DNA of 11,136 bases from Armatimonadota bacterium (GTDB lineage Bacteria > Vulcanimicrobiota > JACPDS01 > JBDRKI01): positions 1 to 11,136 of the forward strand of contig JBDRKI010000106.1 of the NCBI GenBank assembly GCA_043814095.1. The letters run 5' to 3'. The position numbers and the translations under genes were made by a program. The notes beneath the pieces are model-generated. The model worked only from the letters and a program-made list of their open reading frames with translations, was not told where the DNA came from and searched no databases. Numbering within the stretch: position 1 is the stretch's first letter; each line of letters begins with the position of its first letter. This document shows positions 2-11,134 of the stretch, piece by piece.

Positions 2-3000
2 GGATTCAAAACCAGAGACATTAATATATTATTAACCGCGCTGGGCCAAGTTAGAGATGATATATCTAAAAAATCAGGGACAGCGACAGTAAAACAAGAC
101 ACAGAACCCCAAAAAATAACGGAACCAACGCAAGCAGTACCTGAAAAAATTGAAATAAAGCCTTTATCAGATGATAAATTTATATCTTTACTGCAAAATG
201 AATATTCAGAAGCAGTTAAACCCTCCCTATGGGCAAGCAGGTTAATTAATCACCTGCTGGTTTCCACAGAGAACTTCTGTCCTAAAGATTTTACCGGCAC
301 AACCGGCTTTACAAGAAAAAATACTCTATCACGCTGGGATAAATTAACCAGCATGATAGAGACAGAGTTTGAATCCGTTATAATGGCAAGCGGGAAACCT
401 GCAATTGAAATGGTTAATAAATACATTACCCTCTTAGACCTGTTTCTAAAGCATGATATAAAAGATGCCGGGGGAAAGAAGATTACAAACCTTATAGACG
501 CATACGCGTACCTTCTTAAAAACCAGGTTGTTTCAGAGACGGATGAACCTTTAGATTTAAGCTGGGGCAAAGATCTCTTTGAATATCATAATACCGACCA
601 CAAAGGATTCTTCAAGTTTCTTGAATATGAAGAACTTGTAAGATTCAGAGACCATCTTAAAGCGGAAAATGATGCTAAAAAATTAAAGAAAGATAAAAAA
701 GCATTTGACAGGGTAAAAAAAGCTTCTTCTTTATTCACTGTGACACATAGAGGCCCTGACACAAGCTCGCCTTCTATATGGAAAAAAACCGCAAAATCAA
801 ACACAAACGGGACAATAACACCGCCCGGGCAGTCAAAAAATTATCCTCCAATAACAGTCCGCCCCGGCGTACTGCCCCATGAGCGCAAGGGATATCCTGC
901 TGCCGGGGGAAGGGCAAAAATACCCTCTACGGGAAGAAAACAGGATCACATAATAGTATTACGGGCGCTTAATGCAAACAAAACCCGCAAAGAAGCCGCC
1001 GGGAAACTTGAAAAATCCGATGTTTATGTATCCGACATATGCAGGGAAATAAGGGAACTGCAGTACGGTGCATCTGAAATATTAACAGAATATGAAAACA
1101 GCACAGGATTAAAGGTTGCGAAAATACTGGAGCTTTGCAAAGATTTAACCTCAAAAAAAGGCATAACAGAAAAAGATCTGCTTGAAGCCATAATAACGAC
1201 AAATTCCTTCAAAGAAGCCGCGGTCCATTTAAACATTAATGATAAGGTGTTTTTAAGAAGGATTAAAAACCTCCGTGAAAAACTGGAACAAGACCCGGTA
1301 AATGCCGGATATATGGCCGGACAGCTTGCCGGAACCCCTGCAGAAGCAAAATTTTATGAAAAATTCAAAAGAAAGCTTCGGCCCTCTGATATTGTAAAAC
1401 TATGCGCCACCAGAACTGATAATAAAACCGTAAAACAAGCAAAACTTATATATGACCTTATGCTGACCAAAAACAGAAATAAAGCGTGCAAATTATCGAG
1501 CCTGCAGGAAGCGGATTTCAATAAAAATATCCGCAAGATCAAAGCTTTAAATGATACAGACCTGCAGCTTCTGGCAGACTCATTAAATAAAAATCATCCC
1601 GAAATAAAAGAAAACCTGAAAAGACCCGCTGAAGCGAAAGACATTAAAGATATTCTTGATTACATAGATTTAAAAGACTCCGCGGATTTAGCGGAAGCTA
1701 TACTTCTTAAAAAATTTACGGGTGATAGCTCCAAACTTAAAAGAATAAACAGAAACACGCTCATAAGAAGAAAAGAAAAGTTTTCTGGGCTGTCCGCAGA
1801 AGATCTTCAGAAAATAGCCGGCATTATAAACAAATTTTACCCGCACATAAAAGAAGCGGCCGGCAGAGATATAACCGTTTCGGATATAAAAACGCTTGAT
1901 GCTCCCCGGGAAAAAGCGCCCGCAATAAAAGAAGAAAAAACCGCGGACACAGAGAAAAATATCCCGGCCACTGATACCGGAACAGCTCCCGGCATCCTAA
2001 CGGTTTTTTCAAAAAGTGAATTATGTCTGTTGGAATATTTAATAAACAACGCGGATACCATCCCTGTCGAAGGTTTCCGGGAATATTTAAAACACAGTTC
2101 AGAATACTTTAATGTTGCTGATACGGATAATCTTTTAAAGAACTTTAATGAAGCGGTTAAAACTCCGGAAAGCGTTAAATTCTTTGCCGGCAAACTTAAG
2201 GTTCCTGAATCCGGTATTCTCGAACTAAAAAAGAAATTACTGGCTGTTGAGAACACCTCAAAGCCTTCTGGGAAAACAAAGCCGGAAATAATTTTCAATG
2301 AAAAAGAACAGACATTTATAAAAGATTTAACTTCAAAAGATAACCTTAAAATCATATTAAACAGGCATAACCTATCGCTTAAAGACGTTGAAAAAATATT
2401 CGGTAAATCCCAGCAGGCCGCTTTAGAAGATATAGCGTTAGCAACGCAAGTTCTTGAAATAGAGAACCTGCTGAAACTCTTCCAGAAAAGACGGGCGGAA
2501 TTAAAACTCATACAAAGACAGAGTAAAAACGGATTTAAAGCTTCTCAGGGCGGCCTGCCGCCCTCCCCTCCTCAGGATTATAGAAACGGCGGCAACGGAT
2601 ATAGAGAAAGAAACTCCCGGATACTTCCTTTAAACGGCAAAGAATCCGGCAACTTAACCAACGGATCAATGATTGACTCCTTCAATAATGTCAGAAGCAA
2701 AGCCCCCGGACAGGATAAAGACATATCAACAGAAACCCGTGATCCGCTTAACCCCGGAGGGCCTAAACCGGCAGGGCTTAAATGGTGGGATGGATTCAAA
2801 AAGCAACATATGCCGGGCTTATATAAATCAGGCATATTATTCCAGGCATTAAGCGATGTGGATTTAAGCATTGTTCTGAGGGAACATGAAATTTCTTCAG
2901 TAGTTAATCAGATATACCGTGAATCGGGATATGAAAAAGCTTTGGAATTTTACAGAAAGCTTATTGAAATAAATAATGAAAAGGAATCCTTTACTAAAGA

Positions 3001-6000
3001 AGAATTAGATTCTGCAAAACCTTATCTTGCTACAATGGCTGTTAACGGTATAATCAAAAAATACGGATTCTACGGACAATTTGCCATAGACAATCCGGTA
3101 AAGTCCATTGCAGCCACTTACAAGGATTTTAATTATCCAATTTTTGATGTGTTAAATACCTTGGAAAAATATGATCAATTCTTTATTGATTTATTTAAAG
3201 CATTAAAAGAGATTGACCCTGCTTTTGTTGATGCGTTCAAAAAAACTTTTAATCCTGAAGATATAAATCAGGCAAAACGGGCTAAAACCATATTGATTGT
3301 AAATGAAGCATTGAGAACTTACGGTTGTAAAAAACATGACAAGCTGGCACACTGCCTGCCCAAAGAAGGCGCCGCATTATATCTAAGAAACCGAATACTT
3401 GATAGCCCTAAAACTTTTAATTTAAATAAAGATAATTATATTTCTTTCTTTACGGAAATAATTGAGAATTTAGGAAAAATTGATCCCGCGCTTGCGCTGG
3501 AATTTTCCGAAGGGCTCTGCTCGGGGCCTGAAGATCCTAAATATATAGTAATATCCTGCAGTAAAAATGAGATAAGATCTCCCTTTGCTGAATATATAGC
3601 TAATAAGATAATTTCCCGGAATGATAATTATAAAGATTATACAGTCGTATCCGCGGGGATAGATGCGCGGGAGGGAGCACCAAACTACTTTATCGTGGCA
3701 GATAAAACAACAGACGAACCCATAGACAGCAAGAAAAAAACAAGAGCCCTTAGCCCTGAGTTAGTAGAAAAAGCTGATATAGCATTCATTGTTCCCGAAC
3801 ATTACCAAGAAGCAGTGGAGAGATATCCCGGACACGCTGATAAGATACTGCCCATGGAACTGCCTCTGACAGTATTTACGGTGCATGAAGGCACAGTAGA
3901 GCTTTACCGTGAAATCATATTCGGGCATATAGAAATGCTCGCGAACTTGAAAAAAGCATTAAGAGGCTATTCTGCCGGACCTCAGGGTGGAACTAAAAAA
4001 ATAATACCCGGCTCATTAGTTGACGCGCATAAAGCAGAAAGAAAAGGCTTTGAAAATACTCAAAGACATGAAAGACAACCTGAAAACGGCAGCACAAGCA
4101 GTCATGACTCCAAAGGCCTGCAGACACCTTCACCCGGAGGCAGCCCTGTATATTTCGAATTTGGAGAAACTTTTATATTTAATCAATTAAGAGAGTCCGT
4201 AACACCGGATACGCTGGAGCTATATATAAGACAACAGGTAAAAGACCCTGATGCGTTTGCCCAAAAAATCAACACATTAACTCAAACAGACGAAGCTTTA
4301 AATAAATTTGCTAAAGAGCATGGGCTTGAAGTAGAAAAAATTGAGTTATTAAAAAGCACACTATCTTCAACGCAAAGCGCAACAGCTTTAACGCGCGATG
4401 AATCAATGCTTCTCAAATCATTAGGCAATCGACGGGTTATGCGATGGGACAAAATCATAAAAAATGCATCTATAGACCCCATGGCTCTGCGGGATAAAGT
4501 TGATAAACTTACCGAAACGACCGATGATAAACGCAGTTTTGCCAAAAAGTATTCTATTTCATTCGGGGAAGTAGACAGTTTAAATCGTGTATTATCCGAA
4601 ATCGTGCAGAAAACAGTTCTAAATAAAAATGAGGAAGCCGTAGTAAACAGACTAAAAAATACTTCCATGGAAGAATGGAAAGACATTATAATAAATTCTG
4701 AAGTTCACCTCGGAAATTTTGCAAAAAAAATAGATACCGTAAGCGCTTTCGATACTGCTAAACAATCTTTCCTTGAAGAATTCAGCTTTACAGAAAGAGG
4801 ACTGACACGCCTGAAAAATATAACATATGAGCTTCAAAAATCAAAACACCTCTCAGAAAGCCAGAAAAACTTACTTTCCCTTTTGAAAATTTCAGATATA
4901 AAAAAGTGGGAAGAGATATTAAATAATGAGATGAAACATGGAACTAAGGACTTAGCAGGTCTTAAATATAAAATCGATGTTTTAACCCGGAATGAAGCCG
5001 GCAGAGCAAAATTCACTAAAGATCATGGTATTGAAAAAATTGATGAATTAAAGAATTCGCTGAATAAAGTTTTAAACGAACAAAACTCACCTAAAACAGA
5101 AATAGAAGAAGGCGGTATTGGTGCAAAAGAATCAGAATCTAACCGCCACAGTAAAATGCCTAATATAAGACCCAACATGCCCCCGCACGCGAAACTGCAT
5201 CAGCGGAGGCCGGAATTAAAAGATACCTCAGCGGCAGTCAAATCAGGAAAAACCATAATGCTGGCTAAGGGTAAAAGCATAACCCTAACGGCGGCGGAAG
5301 AATCAATAATCGCCCTGCGGGGAGATAAAAACCGCAAAACAGCCGTAAAAAAATCCGTACTGGCTTTGAATATAGATGCCGTATCTTTCTTTGAAAAAAT
5401 AGATAAAGCAATCTGGCATGAAGCTTTTACGGCATTTAAAAAAGCCTACGGGCTTAGCGATATAAACCTTGCTGATCTGCATCATATACTAAGAGAATTA
5501 GACGAAGAAATAAAAGTACTGCAAAAACTGAATCAATTAAGAGACAGAAAAGACCGTATAATATCTATCTCAAACAAATTAAAATGGACGATAAAGAAAA
5601 CGGATCAAGCCTATAATAGAGCGCACAGGTATTTCAGAATCAAAGTTTTATCGGAACAAGAACTGGAATCTCTTGCCAAACAAGCAGGATATGAAAATGC
5701 CAAAGACCTGACGGAAGCCGTTAAAGCAAATAGTCCCCCTCCGAATTTAAATGAAAAAGCATTTGAAGCAGGTCTAACAATTACTGTGGGAGATTCAAAA
5801 AAATTCTACGGCTCTATAAGCAATATTATGACAAATATATTAAAACAGGACTTAAACGGGGATATTGCCGGTGTTTTTGCCGCTAAACTAAGAGAATACA
5901 AAAATCCATCTTTTATGATCAACTCCTGCATCAATATATTAAGAGAGTTTAAAAATAAAGGGGTAAAAGACTGCAAAGGTCATGATATTGCCGATATCAT

Positions 6001-9000
6001 ATCCATATATAATTACATGGCTGAAAATAACCTTTTTAAAAAGCCTGCAGAAAATTTAAAAGGCAGTGAAGATGCTTTTAAATGCCTTAACCTTGAATTT
6101 TTTGAAACAATTAAAAAAGAATTTAAAAATGGAAATGGAAACGGAAACGGGGAAAGCGTTCCCGAACTGCTGAGCCCCGGGTTTTTTGAAAGAGTTAGAG
6201 AGGAAATAAAAGATCCGGATATCGGAAGAACTGAAGATTTATACGGGAAAGACTGGTTTGAGATAGCTGATACGCTGCACGAGCGCACAGAGAAAGCTAA
6301 AGCTAAAACCAAAGCTAAGGAAAGCACGCGGGTAAAACCAAGCGAAAAAACAGCTTACATTGACGGCATACCGATGTCGGGTAAAGCCCCTAAAATAGAA
6401 GCAGGGAGTGTCGGCGCGCCCGAGATAAATAACAATCACTCCAAAATGCCTGTAGTAAGGCCTGAGTTTCCGCCGCACGCAAAACTGCACCGTATAACAG
6501 GCGCTATTGATTCCTTAACCCGCAAACTTTTCCCTGATTATTATACAGAGATGAAAATTAATAAAGCGGCTGAAAAGGCGGGAGTAAAAATATCCGGCGA
6601 AAATGATAATCCGGCATCGGAGCTGGAAACCGTATGCAATAATTACGGATGGGATAAAACTCTCAAACTTTACAAGCATATCCTTGAACTTCATAATAAA
6701 GAAAATATATTTAATCAGGATGAGATGCTTGCCGCAAAAAACATTATGCTGAATAAATTAGCGGTAATAGGCGGGATTGAAAAACAGAATATTGACGCAA
6801 AAATAAAGAAAGCTCTGGTTCAATCAATCCGGAACGCTAAATGCGCTACCCCGGAAGATACGGCCGTTTATACAAGGGAAGCTGTTTTAAGAACAAGCTT
6901 AAAAATAGATTGTATTAAGCTTCTTAATGATACCGTTAAGAATTTAGAAAAAATTGATATTAATTATGCCAATAAATTTAGTGCCGGAGCCGCCGGAAAA
7001 CCTGTTGTCAGTATATTACATGTATGCGAACTCCATCAGGTCCGCAGCACCGCGGCGGAATATTTTACAAACCTGCTTCTTTTTGAAAAATACGGAGACA
7101 GATTTACGGTTGAATCCGCCGGCACAAACGCGATAGACGGCCAGCCAACCGCGTTTCTGGTTGATATCGAAGGGATTTCCAGCGGATTAACCGGTATTTC
7201 TAGAAAACTAACCCCTGAGATGATTGAAAAAGCGGATGTCGTCTTCGCGGCAGTCGGCACTGAAGGAACCATAAAGAAAATTATTGAGGAAGCGGAACTG
7301 CCTGAACATCATTATATGAAGATTACAACAGGTTTCTTCCCGCGTTCGATTCAGAAAAAAGAAAATTTCATGCCCATGGTAGAGTATATAGAGGCAAGAG
7401 AGAAAATAAGGAAGGCTTTCGGCGGAAACCTGCCGGTGCCCCCCTCCCCCTGTCCCGGAGAACCGTCCGTTACAAAAGGTTCGGCAATAGACCAGTTTGG
7501 GATGCGGAAAGAGAAGGCAAATCCCGCTACCAAAGAACACAACCGGCTTGGCAGCGCGGTCAAGCCGGAAAAACATGACCGGGCAGAAATACACTGGGGA
7601 GAACTGCATAAAAAAGTTATGCCGGGACATTATTACAGTAAAAAAACCAATGTTAATCTGGCTGCTAAAGAACTTGGTATAACACTGCATAACTCTGATA
7701 TACATAAATTCCCCTCCCTTAAAGTCTATTTTGACAAAATATTTGAAACCATCAATGAAAGACACGGCTGGGATAAAGCCGTAGCCTTTTACAATAAACT
7801 CCTTCAGATAAATACGGAAAAAGGCGGTAAGGTTCTCTCTTCTGAAGATATTAATGAAGCTCAGCTGTTTTTAACAAGAATAGCTGTTAAAAATTCGGCA
7901 AAAGCTAACTCTCTGGAATTATTCTTAATGGATAAATTCACAGTAGAGGCAACTGCAGTTAATTTCAGAGAAGCAGTTCTTTTAAACGTTCTACCTGTTC
8001 AACTTGTTAAAAACTATAACTACATCCAGATATTCAGCAATACCGTACGTGAACTTGAAAAGCTGAATACTGCATTAGCATTTAAATTTAAAACAGCCCT
8101 TGGAGGCGGATACCTTGAAAACATCCTTTTTGTATGTGAACAAAACAAACTAAGGAGCCAGGGAGCGGAATTTTTAGTAAATATGATGTTGGATAAAAAA
8201 TACGGACGCAGGTTCTCGGTTAAATCTGCAGGGACTCGCGCATATGAGGGAGCTGAGACTGCTTGTATGGTGCAGATACAGGGAGAAACTAAATGTAGAA
8301 AAAGTACTACAAAAAAACTTACTCCTGCTCTTATTAAGAACGCTCATATGGTCTTTGTAACTCCGGAAAATTATAAAGTTGTATTTGATATGGTAACAGA
8401 ACTTATAAAAGAAGGAAAACTTGAAGAAAAAGATCTGCAGAAAATCAATAAAAAACTGTTCCCGCCGGGTGCAGGCATGTTATATAATGAAGGCGATTTT
8501 TCATTAATAGTACTATATATAGAGGCAAGAGATACCGTACATAAAGTATTCGGAGCAGATCCTATAAAAGAAGGCGGTATCGGGATAGAAGAACCCTGCT
8601 CTGACCGGCACAGCAAAATGCCTCAAATAAGACCTGAATGGCCTCCTTCCGCAAAAATGCATCACAGCCTTATACAGAAGCTGGGTCATGACAGATATCT
8701 GATAGGAAAACTTGCATTCCGGGATAATGAAATAAATTTCATTAAAGCCCTTAAAGATAATCCATCCTCTAAAATACCATCAATTGCCGGAAGACATAAA
8801 ATAGCGCAACCTTTAACTGTGCTGGTCAGGTTTAATACCCTGTACTATGAAGCAAAAGTTGAGGCAGCCGAGTTCCTGGGATTTGAAAGCTTGAACCAGT
8901 TTCAAAATACCATAACTAATGGTATGCGTGAATTAGGAGCAACCGGCCGGGGTAAATCCAAACCCGGGATAAAAGACGCATTCAAAGCCGGCACTTCCTT

Positions 9001-11134
9001 CCCTGAGAAAGAATTAATCTTAGCATCGGGAGAAAAAATAACTTTTACGGGAGCAGAAGGAAAACTTTTTAATTCCAAGTTTAATCCCAATAACAAAATA
9101 ATGCTAAAAAGAGATATCCTTGATCTGGGTATAAATGGAGTGGAGCTTTTTGAAAAAATAAAAGCCGTGGGAGCTTCGGCAAATGATATTCTCATGCTCA
9201 AAAATATGTATCCCAACCTTAAAGGAAAAAGGTACAGCGACTTATACACAATATTAAAAGAACTCAGCGAAGAAATAATAACATTACGGGAGCTGAGATT
9301 TTTAAAACCCGACCGCGAACGGTTAACAATCCTGGCAAAAAGATTAGGTATGCCTAAAAAATATTCTGATAATATTTACTATAATGCTAAAAAGCTTGTT
9401 GATTCCATGGATGAAAGCCAGAGGGCAAGCTTCGCAAAAATAATAGAAGTCGATAGCGCGGAAAAGCTCACAGAATTAACAAGTCCCGCCAATCAGACTC
9501 AAAAGATAAACAGGAAAGCAAAAGAGCTGGGATTAAACATCAATTCAACTGATTCAAAATACATATATATGGGTCTTGAATCGATAATATCCGATATCCT
9601 GAACGGCATCAAGCCTTCCATGGACAGCAAGCAAATATCCGAGTTTGCCATAACCAGGTTTGAAAAAAGCATTAAAAAATATGACAACCCGTTTACCCCT
9701 CTTAAAACATGCATCAAAGTCTTAAAAGAATTTAAAACTAACCCGAAAAAGCTTTCCTGCGGAAAACCCGTTACAACCATAGTAGATGTATATAATTATA
9801 TGCTGGAAAATGATCTGTTTGACGCTCAAGTTAAAATGAAAATTGAATTAAACGAATACGAAGAACATTTTAACTTCCTTACCCTTGAATTCTTTGAAAA
9901 GTTTATTAAAGATCTAGAAAATAACATGTCTAACGGAAACCTAAACATAGACATAAAAGAAGAATATGACAAAATAGAGCAGGAACTTCTCGAGATATGC
10001 AACGAACTCTATGAACCTCTTGTCATAACTCTATTTAACGCGCAAACTAAAAGAGGTATAACCATAACCGGGCCCGCCAAAGAAAAAATAAAGCAAAACG
10101 CAAAAGATATGATTTTAAAGCCCGATATGCCGAAATTATCGCTTGATTCTGCAAGAACATTAAACTTAAATGCTCATTATGTGGAAACATTACTCAACCA
10201 TATCGATCTTATAAAAGATAATTTTCCGGATAAAGCGCAAAAATTAATCGGAAAATTAAACACTCTGCAAAATTCAATATACGGCTTTAACCTGCACAGG
10301 CAGGGAGAACTTGACATACAGAAACAGCTGAAAATCAATTCCGATAATATCGAAGGACTGCCGGTTGAGAGGGCAGGTAAAAAATATCATGGAAAGTTCC
10401 CCGCCCCTATCCGGCCTGAAGTATTAGGCAATGAGAGGGCTAATTTAAGTTCGAAAAAGACAGCCGGATCAAAAAAACAAGCCGCTGAGCCTAAAACTAC
10501 TCAAAGAATATATTTTACAGAAAAAGAAAAAGAAATACTCCGCTCCCCTATTAACACTGCCCAGAAAACAAGAATAAAACAGGATATCCTTGATGCGAGG
10601 CTGGATCCTATAGAATTCGCATGGAAAGTAAAGAATAAAGTTGATAATCCGGCAAAAAGAGCAAACTTTAAAAGAGATTACGGGCTTAATAATAGAAACT
10701 GTGACGATTTAGTTAATATACTGGAAGAATTTGAAGCCGAAATAACCATTTTAAGAACCATAAGGGAGATACAGCTTGATAAAACAATAAAAGATAAAAG
10801 AAATTATTTAAGGTGGGTCGCGCTTAGATTATTATGGGACCACGATTACATCAAGAAAACCCTTGATCACAGCATAAAATACTACTTTAAGAAGTTGACT
10901 CCCAAACAACAGGAAAGACTGGCGGAAATAACAGGATTTGGAAACGCTGTAGCGCTCAAGAATACTCTTTATCCTCAGGAAAGTAAAATAGAAAAAAGGG
11001 TTGAGGAAAAACTAAGCAAAACAAAGGAAACTTCTGTACCCTTAACCCGGGGCGGGACAAGCGCTATAGTTGACAGATCAGCCGTTGAGAGAGCGGGCAA
11101 AAAACATCGCGGGCAGTTTCCTGTTCCAACAACA
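2..11134 (+). CDS. Giant multi-module protein, internal fragment (>3711 aa, open at both ends), containing 3 LMW-PTP-like domains, HTH-like repeats and repeated helical modules
   Basis: Manual translation of frame +2 (GFKTRDINILLTALG...VERAGKKHRGQFPVPTT) shows no TAA/TAG/TGA across the window. The strand is A-rich with natural K/E/I/N-rich composition. Recognisable domains and internal protein repeats all fall in this frame. Confidence 0.96.
410..661 (+). repeat. Diverged copy of module Q C-terminal subdomain
   Basis: MVNKYITLLDLFLKHDIKDAGGKKITNLIDAYAYLLKNQVV...FKFLEYEE vs MINSCINILREFKNKGVKDCKGHDIADIISIYNYMAENNLF...FKCLNLEF. Confidence 0.6.
956..1897 (+). repeat. Four tandem ~75-90 aa HTH-like units
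   Basis: VLRALNANKTRKEAAGKLEKSDVYVSDICREIREL (956); LLEAIITTNSFKEAAVHLNINDKVFLRRIKNLREKL (1178, LysR/ModE-HTH-like); LIYDLMLTKNRNKACKLSSLQEADFNKNIRKIKAL (1445); LAEAILLKK...KRINRNTLIRRKEKF (1688, Fis-like INRNTL). Units 3 and 4 share tails (LNDTDLQLLADSLNKNHPEIKE / LSAEDLQKIAGIINKFYPHIKE). Confidence 0.6.
3539..3961 (+). other. LMW-PTP/ArsC-fold phosphatase-like domain 1
   Basis: KYIVISCSKNEIRSPFAEY (CX5RS at 3557-3580), YTVVSAGI, TRALSPELVEKADIAFIV. These match, in order and spacing, the LMWPc hallmarks ILFVCxGNxCRSPxAE, VxSAG and RxLxxxxxxxADLI. Confidence 0.85.
4148..5080 (+). repeat. Four tandem ~77-aa helical protein repeats
   Basis: Anchor hydrophobic residues at 4154, 4388, 4619 and 4850 (spacing 234/231/231 bp). 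Shared pattern LxxxExxhhxxL...WxxIh...K(I/V)Dxh...FxxxxG/S...LK. Similarity is at protein level, not exact DNA. Confidence 0.75.
5102..5200 (+). repeat. Inter-module linker motif, strong copy 1
   Basis: IEEGGIGAKESESNRHSKMPNIRPNMPPHAKLH. Confidence 0.9.
5249..6127 (+). repeat. Unknown ~300-aa helical module Q, copy 1
   Basis: Aligns end to end with 9008-9925: IMLAKGKSITLTAAE/LILASGEKITFTGAE; FFEKI/LFEKI; DLHHILRELDEEI/DLYTILKELSEEI; CINILREFK/CIKVLKEFK; IYNYMAENNLF/VYNYMLENDLF; LNLEFFE/LTLEFFE. Confidence 0.85.
6127..6150 (+). repeat. Hexamer microrepeat (aaaYgg)x4 encoding NGNGNGNG
   Basis: aaatgg aaatgg aaacgg aaacgg read directly. Confidence 0.8.
6395..6490 (+). repeat. Inter-module linker motif, strong copy 2
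   Basis: IEAGSVGAPEINNNHSKMPVVRPEFPPHAKLH. Confidence 0.9.
7010..7423 (+). other. LMW-PTP/ArsC-fold phosphatase-like domain 2
   Basis: SILHVCELHQVRSTAAEY (CX5RS at 7025-7048), FTVESAGT, SRKLTPEMIEKADVVFA. Confidence 0.85.
8120..8554 (+). other. LMW-PTP/ArsC-fold phosphatase-like domain 3
   Basis: NILFVCEQNKLRSQGAEF (CX5RS at 8135-8158), FSVKSAGT, TKKLTPALIKNAHMVFV. Clear paralogue of domain 2 (KYGDRFTVESAGT vs KYGRRFSVKSAGT; YIEAR in both; identical 17-mer tatatagaggcaagaga at 7385 and 8516). Confidence 0.87.
8564..8662 (+). repeat. Inter-module linker motif, strong copy 3
   Basis: IKEGGIGIEEPCSDRHSKMPQIRPEWPPSAKMH. Confidence 0.9.
9008..9925 (+). repeat. Unknown ~300-aa helical module Q, copy 2
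   Basis: Same alignment as for copy 1 (5249-6127). Confidence 0.85.
10349..10447 (+). repeat. Linker motif variant (VERAGKK type), copy 1
   Basis: IEGLPVERAGKKYHGKFPAPIRPEVLGNERANL; HGKFPAPIRPE parallels HSKMPxIRPE. Confidence 0.8.
10508..10975 (+). repeat. Module Q, N-terminal half only (copy 3)
   Basis: IYFTEKE...IKQDILD (vs LKRDILD)...FKRDYGL (vs FKKAYGL)...DLVNILEEFEAEITILR (vs DLYTILKELSEEIITLR)...LAEITGFGNA (vs LAKQAGYENA). Confidence 0.75.

Follow-up and report, generated by a model that had tools for sequence, protein, structure and literature searches.

The window analyzed here, 11,136 nucleotides (nt) from an Armatimonadota bacterium (assembly GCA_043814095.1), is the entire contig C106 of a 2.50-Mb genome in 129 contigs, with a GC content of 38.6% against 39.3% for the genome. 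From end to end it is occupied by a segment of a giant open reading frame (ORF; positions 2 to 11134, + strand, frame 2, 3,711 amino acids [aa]) that has no stop codon and is open at both ends; all window features given below lie on this strand. The encoded polypeptide contains three copies of a two-domain module, in which a helical domain of ~175 residues stands N-terminal to a domain of ~150 residues of the LMWPc superfamily, that of the protein tyrosine phosphatases of low molecular weight (LMW-PTPs). In the textbook view, enzymes with this fold are small free-standing proteins that act as phosphatases on phosphotyrosine or phosphoarginine, or on arsenate. The LMWPc domains of modules 1, 2, and 3 span positions 3500 to 4000, 6968 to 7480, and 8114 to 8551, and their helical domains span 2981 to 3499, 6491 to 6967, and 7580 to 8113, the limits of the first two helical domains being approximate and drawn from an alignment of seven modules and from their match to the module 3 query.

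Each LMWPc domain carries a phosphate-binding loop (P-loop) of eight residues: CSKNEIRS in copy 1 (3557 to 3580; aa 1186), CELHQVRS in copy 2 (7025 to 7048; aa 2342), and CEQNKLRS in copy 3 (8135 to 8158; aa 2712). All three keep the Cys, Arg, and Ser (C-X5-R-S) and have lost the Gly and the second Cys of canonical loops; in copy 2 a His also replaces the Asn, and position 5 is E, Q, and K in copies 1 to 3, respectively. The Pfam LMWPc hidden Markov model (HMM; PF01451) matched the whole window protein over three stretches (72.1 bits, E = 7.1e-20), and the excised domains of copies 1 to 3 scored 30.5 (E = 5e-07), 24.6 (E = 3.1e-05), and 33.5 bits (E = 5.9e-08), each above the curated cut-off of 23.2 bits. 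By sequence, the solved structures nearest to the copies were enzymes of LMW-PTP fold, mainly YwlE and 4egs from T. tengcongensis, with best E-values of 2.4e-05 (copy 1; phmmer search of PDB sequences, 4egs followed by YwlE), 0.052 (copy 2), and 0.0073 (copy 3). Profile-profile comparison with hhalign of the seven embedded domains of this genome (see below) to 35 canonical relatives gave a probability of 99.7% (E = 2.3e-26), which, at the level of profiles, is decisive for their homology to canonical LMWPc proteins. The three octapeptides are confirmed as P-loops of LMWPc domains and are no chance motifs.

To place these loops, we used a comparison set of the 147 best profile-search hits outside the genome's own proteins, in which 155 P-loops were found. 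The Asn is present in all 155, so that the His of copy 2 has no counterpart there, and the Gly and second Cys occur together in 130, with 22 loops lacking the second Cys and 14 lacking the Gly; because of this conservation, the window loops must be regarded as truly unusual. The comparison proteins have a median length of 160 aa, with 124 of the 147 at 260 aa or less and 3 at 1,000 aa or more.

An AlphaFold2 model was made of the copy 3 module only, from a 50-row alignment (mean predicted local distance difference test [pLDDT] 87; predicted template modeling score 0.82). Its C-terminal half (model residues 179 to 324, the LMWPc core) has LMW-PTP topology, with the P-loop lying between strand 181 to 186 and helix 192 to 208, such that Cys186 ends strand 1 and Arg192-Ser193 begin helix 1; the P-loop blocks have pLDDT values of 94 to 97. 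The best Foldseek matches were YwlE (4etn, 4pic) and other LMW-PTPs, and a Foldseek-independent search (VIA) recovered LMW-PTPs at Z 11.3 to 14.1 (best, 4egs_B; Z 14.1, root mean square deviation of 2.5 Å over 125 residues), ArsC at 7.2 to 11.3, the EIIB components of the phosphotransferase system (PTS) at 6.9 to 8.2, and Ssu72 at 7.7. For the helical partner, the best structural matches were the N-terminal domains of spidroins (Z 6.4 to 8.2); kinship with these was rejected, as the values are under the level that is meaningful for helical bundles. The original prediction, made by reading the window DNA, had named the three P-loops with the residues kept and lost, had pointed to the His of copy 2, had proposed LMWPc domains of LMW-PTP fold, and had held such enzymes to be normally small. 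The translation reproduces the loops exactly, and the comparison loops, Pfam scores, copy 3 model, and length distribution all agree with the rest, making three such domains in one giant protein a rare architecture.

The modules form a paralogous family that extends beyond the window. Modules 1 to 3 are mutually 27 to 36% identical, the pair 2 and 3 at 36%, and with the copy 3 module as query, copies 1 and 2 were recovered at E = 8.4e-16 and 1.1e-35, respectively. There are nine LMWPc matches in the genome, seven embedded in very long frames (three in the window, two on contig C63, and one each on C30 and C32) and two in stand-alone genes. All seven embedded domains are preceded by the helical partner, whose copies align over the motifs YGW[D/E]K and A-x-x-R-[E/D/N], the latter with an invariant Arg (nt 7955 to 7972 in module 3). 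At pairwise identities of 21 to 38%, the seven LMWPc domains share an invariant P-loop Cys, Arg, and Ser together with the Ser of an SAG strand. The two stand-alone genes (C93:2344-2748, + strand; C26:5421-5825, − strand) encode 153-aa proteins with the canonical loop CTGNTCRS; the genome therefore encodes two ordinary enzymes of this kind as well. P-loop position 5 is reported to be Ile in most LMW-PTPs, which act on phosphotyrosine, and Thr in arginine phosphatases (PMC7772506); both stand-alone genes have the Thr of the arginine-phosphatase signature.

To judge from our searches, the module is very rare outside this genome. It was not found in any of the 40 relatives searched, two of which gave matches of 22 to 24 bits to the LMWPc part only. 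A profile of the seven modules, searched over 1.84 billion representative proteins, recovered 4,214 proteins at E ≤ 0.001; besides the genome's four own proteins, both halves were matched only in P0006 and P0007, which come from metagenome contigs of 1.6 to 1.8 kb and have the loops CYCNARRS and CYMNKDRS, both of the form C-x-x-N-x-x-R-S. A word-indexed profile search for longer fused forms of the LMWPc domain returned only the genome's own C63 protein, which is weak evidence that such forms are lacking. Separately, P0132 (3,313 aa) has two LMWPc domains with the loops CSANYNRS and CAGNKNRS, of an Ssu72-like pattern, and no further Pfam family at E 0.01.

The embedded domains also lack several features of the classical enzymes. 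In the hhalign comparison, the Asp-Pro of the D-loop, conserved in at least 90% of the 35 relatives, aligned to a gap of the embedded family, in which the loop between an invariant Lys and the last helix is ~10 residues shorter and reads L/F-Pro. In module 3, the short loop replacing the D-loop, as located by this gap and by the module alignment, is KINKKLFPPGAGMLYNEGD (8441 to 8497) and is without Asp-Pro; by register, the Asp of the copy 3 'EGDF' would match an acidic position that opens the last helix and takes no part in catalysis. Trp is lacking from all seven domains, and at the site of the classical Trp loop the module 3 model has a β-hairpin insertion (8255 to 8308; DSSP strands 226 to 233 and 236 to 243 of the model). 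The P-loop Cys is the only conserved Cys, three of the seven domains having no other at all; therefore, the cysteine relay of ArsC is absent.

This last point bears on a role as thioredoxin-coupled arsenate reductases of the pI258 ArsC type. Among NCBIfam models, copy 1 matches an arsenate reductase (PRK13530) best, and ArsC structures match the copy 3 model at Z 8 to 11. However, the hit reaches only 28.7 bits against a cut-off of 215 (20.9 against 174.3 for TIGR02691), and three copies of a reductase would be unexpected in a giant protein that bears kinases; we consider this role extremely improbable. The original prediction had likened the loops to COG4551, a group catalogued as 'predicted protein tyrosine phosphatase', and to Ssu72, the eukaryotic C-terminal-domain phosphoserine phosphatase, with which they share the pattern CxxNxxRS and an LMW-PTP-like fold. 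In Pfam, the C32 paralogue, with the loop CNANQTRS, matches Ssu72 weakly (17 bits against a cut-off of 25.3, E = 0.0046), and 3o2q_B of Ssu72 aligns with the copy 3 model at Z 7.7. Against this, the three window domains have no hit to the Ssu72 family (PF04722) at E ≤ 1, and no conserved acid loop was found. In the structure search, 18 representative chains outscored Ssu72; the match of one, a spidroin N-terminal domain, is to the helical domain, and those of the other 17 (LMW-PTPs, ArsC, and one PTS IIB) fall on the phosphatase domain. Among the matches listed, the Z of Ssu72 lies below those of the LMW-PTPs (11 to 14) and of four of the five ArsC chains. The likeness did not hold up as kinship, with the CxxNxxRS spelling left as the shared element, and a function as Ssu72-like phosphoserine phosphatases appears very improbable. 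Membership in both families was rejected on the failing HMM scores and the absent three-Cys relay.

The window copies have neither the full C-x-G-N-x-C-R-S loop nor an Asp-Pro D-loop, a Trp loop, or an Ile or Thr at position 5. Lacking Asp-Pro, Trp loop, and second Cys, and with E, Q, or K at position 5, the domains are not classical phosphotyrosine or phosphoarginine phosphatases. On sequence profiles and the predicted structure, they belong to the LMWPc superfamily and stand outside the classical LMW-PTP/YwlE/Wzb, ArsC, and Ssu72 families. It had also been proposed that the paralogues diverged toward different phospho-substrates; position 5 does differ among them, and we found no direct evidence for such a divergence. 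In the alignments, the larger change is the one common to all copies, namely, that both the Trp loop and the general-acid loop with its Asp-Pro have been lost. A limited literature search on LMWPc, fused histidine kinases, and giant proteins found no description of such modules, and we class them as a new subfamily of a known superfamily, with a new partner domain in a new architecture.

The window ORF is part of a still larger gene. Contig C86 (14,703 nt) is a single open frame of 4,900 codons whose last 141 nt are exactly the first 141 nt of the window; with C86 upstream, the two join in frame through a 46-aa overlap into a polypeptide of at least 8,565 aa that is open at both ends. A Kyte-Doolittle scan found no membrane-type segment in these 8,565 assembled aa, the ends of the gene being unassembled. 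The C86 part of the frame contains five HATPase_c histidine kinase cores (aa 1208-1318, 1574-1682, 2131-2234, 2473-2578, and 3110-3234), four of which have an IRHxxxxP-type H-box, with intact N, G1 (DNGPG), and G2 boxes. Pfam searches of the giant ORFs found no other kinase families and no receiver domains, and none of the 26 receiver-domain matches of the genome lies on a giant-ORF contig. A paralogous giant frame on C32 (5,533 codons, C terminus present) combines HATPase_c domains and HEAT repeats with one LMWPc module, and C90 and C30, joined via another 141-nt overlap, encode one LMWPc module and a pair of M16 peptidase units. A stretch of DNA is common to C86, C63, and C32 at 90 to 95.5% identity (C86 with C32, 696 nt at 95.5%; with C63, 536 to 539 nt at 90 to 91%), which explains the assembly breaks and indicates at least three paralogous giant genes. 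The joined C90 and C30 piece also includes an N terminus and a sub-threshold ATLF-like match, and C78, with a frame of 2,075 codons, is a further member of this gene family, which is broken across contigs (C86, C32, C63, C90, C30, and C78). On C63, two long frames (1,153 and 1,804 codons) in different reading frames overlap by 10 nt at 3451-3460, where there may be a border between two genes, a frameshift, or an error of assembly.

The picture that emerges is of a cysteine cradle that selection has preserved across the seven copies, with the acid loop and substrate pocket discarded, and that has been fused to a new helical domain in giant proteins whose only recognizable kinases are receiver-less histidine kinases. 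From these observations we infer a chemistry, a class of substrates, and a link to the kinases. The reading that we favor, tentatively, is that the modules are cysteine phosphatases acting on phospho-groups that are not on tyrosine and are probably labile, with a link to the kinases of their own family. No copy has lost the thiolate Cys or its helper Ser; therefore, Cys chemistry is probably still under selection. Likewise, because the cradle is kept (Cys-X5-Arg-Ser, with the Asn in two of the three window copies), attack on a phosphoryl group has most likely been retained, and the reaction would most likely pass through a phospho-cysteine intermediate. Without a general acid, O-phosphoesters would be poor substrates, and phosphoramidates and acyl phosphates could still be cleaved; the likeliest targets would be groups that need little acid help to leave, attached through N-P or acyl-P bonds (phosphohistidine, phosphoarginine, or phosphoaspartate). 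Alternatively, the helical domain may supply the missing acid, its invariant Arg-[Glu/Asp/Asn] completing the site. The role of the modules would then be to remove the marks that the giant-protein family's kinases set. If they act on phosphohistidine, or hold phospho-cysteine, they would be a new class of partner for two-component kinases and would offer the first functional handle on one among many bacterial giant proteins that lack an explanation.

Several points weigh against this proposal. Loss of the D-loop Asp lowers the turnover of LMW-PTPs by orders of magnitude, so that the domains, having lost it, could be very slow or dead; and the Asn that copy 2 has exchanged for His is a structural residue of the P-loop, invariant, as noted, throughout the comparison loops. 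From the upstream kinase cores to the modules the distance is ~2,600 to 6,300 residues, and contact between the two is only presumed. Their link is one of co-occurrence in two gene fragments (C86 with C106, and C32), and the C90 with C30 and C63 pieces have LMWPc modules and no detected kinase core in their assembled part. A predicted complex of two kinase-core copies with the copy 1 LMWPc domain scored 0.18 against a mark of 0.32 and, being without controls, speaks neither for such contact nor against it.

These losses could also mean that the modules bind without turning over, as substrate traps or pseudophosphatases that serve as tight docking sites for phosphorylated partners on a giant scaffold, a reading that we hold to be unlikely. 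The Asp-Pro loop is absent from all seven copies, and in copy 2 the Asn is gone as well. Small changes in the P-loop or pocket are reported to inactivate protein tyrosine phosphatase domains (PMC7772506). The polypeptide, with folded modules and helical units set on low-complexity linkers, is itself scaffold-like. However, the nucleophilic Cys and the Ser beside the Arg have remained invariant in all seven copies despite their low mutual identity. A pure binder needs no thiolate, and known pseudophosphatases often lose the Cys. Moreover, two LMW-PTPs that had been classed as pseudophosphatases by sequence alone proved to be active (PMC7772506). Were the domains dead, they would offer nature's own clear case of a phosphatase fold that has become a binding module.

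The absence of receivers from a protein with so many histidine kinase cores suggests one more possibility, in which the modules would replace receivers as relay acceptors, taking the phosphoryl group from the phospho-His of the kinase cores and holding it on the Cys in the manner of PTS EIIB. The five kinase cores with H-boxes are consistent with this, and loss of the general acid/base would be expected to prolong the life of a Cys-phosphate. The phospho-Cys carriers of the PTS (EIIB of the lactose/cellobiose and mannitol type) have a related fold (2few_B, Z 8.2; 3nbm_A, 7.6; 1e2b, 6.9), a reactive Cys after strand 1, and no general acid. A comparable arrangement occurs in the unrelated Elusimicrobiota proteins P0008 and P0152 (see below), where five LMWPc domains, with altered P-loops among them, follow a PEP-utilizers phospho-histidine domain and PPDK_N. 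On the other hand, the window domains keep the phosphatase Arg-Ser and Asn, which EIIB domains are not known to carry; their similarity to LMW-PTPs is much stronger (Z 14 versus 8); and they gave no hit to PTS_IIB (PF02302), with TIGR00829 appearing only at E 0.12. We know of no precedent for a relay from a histidine kinase to a Cys. On balance, such a His-to-Cys phosphorelay on one soluble polypeptide of more than 8,500 residues, in which the absence of the acid/base would keep the phospho-Cys alive, is quite improbable; if true, it would be a new wiring of two-component signaling, chemically parallel to the transfer from EIIA to EIIB in the PTS. The probability left over by the readings named here belongs to functions beyond them.

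The regions between the modules consist largely of at least nine units of ~77 residues and low-complexity linkers, which make up the non-catalytic bulk of the window polypeptide. Four such units stand in tandem at 4148 to 5080, where they were delineated by a profile search and a model of one unit, and five more lie at 2006-2239, 2291-2524, 5279-5512, 9038-9271, and 10508-10741. An AlphaFold2 model of one unit is a five-helix bundle (pLDDT 91.7). Its six best structural matches are the type III secretion gatekeepers MxiC, SepL, TyeA/YopN, InvE, CopN, and BopN, at Z 6.1 to 6.3, values too low to establish relatedness between helical bundles. Assignment of the units as helix-turn-helix domains, suggested by weak HTH_1, HTH_3, and Nif11 matches, was rejected on the five-helix model and a best PDB-sequence E-value of 0.57. 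For the module at nt 5207-6148, between copies 1 and 2, a search of the ESM Atlas gave no usable match. A linker element HSKMPxxRPxxPPxAKxH occurs three times between folded modules (5147-5200, 6437-6490, and 8609-8662), its second and third copies flanking modules 2 and 3; written out more fully, it reads HSKMPxxRPxxPPxAK(L/M)H and is preceded by I-(E/K)-x-G-(G/S)-(I/V)-G. It could be a docking or processing site. M16 peptidase units occur on a paralogous gene fragment, and their relation to this linker is conjectural. A second linker motif, VERAGKK(Y/H)(H/R)G(K/Q)FP(A/V)P, is found at 10364-10435 and 11084-11134, with the window ending within the second copy.

The genome, that of an uncultured and deep-branching bacterium, represents an isolated lineage, as judged from its RpoB (G000:C48:14831-18490), whose closest named relatives are labeled with four phyla, a mixture that speaks neither for nor against the label Armatimonadota. 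The closest RpoB outside the genome, from a metagenome contig, is 83% identical, and the closest named relatives are ~70% identical and come from metagenome-assembled genomes (MAGs) labeled 'Firmicutes' (70%), Candidatus Xenobia, Armatimonadetes, and Chloroflexi; the same order holds one genome only in a set of 199,900 species. Matches to the window were found in three DNA runs from two studies, as short Logan contigs only and with many bins uncovered. Among the 24 pieces listed, of at least 74 in total, 16 are identical to the window (151 to 244 nt), and the other 8 are matches of 34 to 37 nt with 4 or 5 differences. These show only that DNA of the window is present at low depth in those runs, one of which may be the source sample.

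Besides Ssu72 and the PTS EIIB domains, three known systems were compared with this one. (i) With the LMW-PTP/YwlE class (4egs, 4etn, 4kk3, and 5z3m), the window domains share the fold (Z 11 to 14), a P-loop between strand 1 and helix 1, the SAG strand, and Cys-X5-Arg-Ser, to which two of the three copies add the Asn. They differ from it in having no Gly at position 3, no second Cys, E/Q/K rather than Ile/Thr at position 5, a shortened D-loop without Asp-Pro, and a β-hairpin instead of the Trp loop, and in standing always after a ~175-aa helical domain inside a protein of at least 8,565 aa.

(ii) The 'Archaeovorins' of Omnitrophota reportedly contain a DEAD helicase domain resembling SecA and numerous transmembrane regions. 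Unlike them, the 8,565 aa assembled here, the gene ends being unassembled, show no membrane segment and no SecA or DEAD hit. The preprint that describes Archaeovorins (bioRxiv 10.1101/2023.11.21.568195) names a DEAD helicase domain, and the legend of its Supplementary Fig. S1 gives HATPase_c and HEAT repeats among their commonest domains. The likeness to the present family is that both comprise multi-enzyme bacterial proteins of many thousands of residues that are fragmented in assemblies, and the C32 paralogue here also has HEAT repeats. The terms 'LMWPc', 'low molecular weight', and 'tyrosine phosphatase' are absent from the main text of that preprint, whose supplements may list such domains.

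(iii) A parallel in architecture is P0008, a 1679-aa protein from an Elusimicrobiota MAG, with a longer form, P0152, of 3117 aa. It, too, is a long protein in which several LMWPc domains follow one another, fused to a phospho-histidine enzyme part, and has loops without Gly and/or the second Cys (CSFNTSRS, CTHNTSRS, and CAANHSRS); of its five LMWPc domains, these three are altered, one has the canonical CAGNACRS, and one has Gly for the nucleophilic Cys (GAGYTDRS). One region of P0008 passes the PTS_IIB cut-off (26.2 versus 23.6 bits). In contrast to the window protein, P0008 has no helical partner, its best stretch covering profile positions 179 to 266, in the LMWPc part only, and its LMWPc domains score far higher with the Pfam LMWPc model, at 337 bits for five. 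P0008 and P0152 are unrelated to the modules described here; as one case that carries no statistic, they support the idea that altered LMWPc arrays are repeatedly linked with phospho-histidine enzymes.

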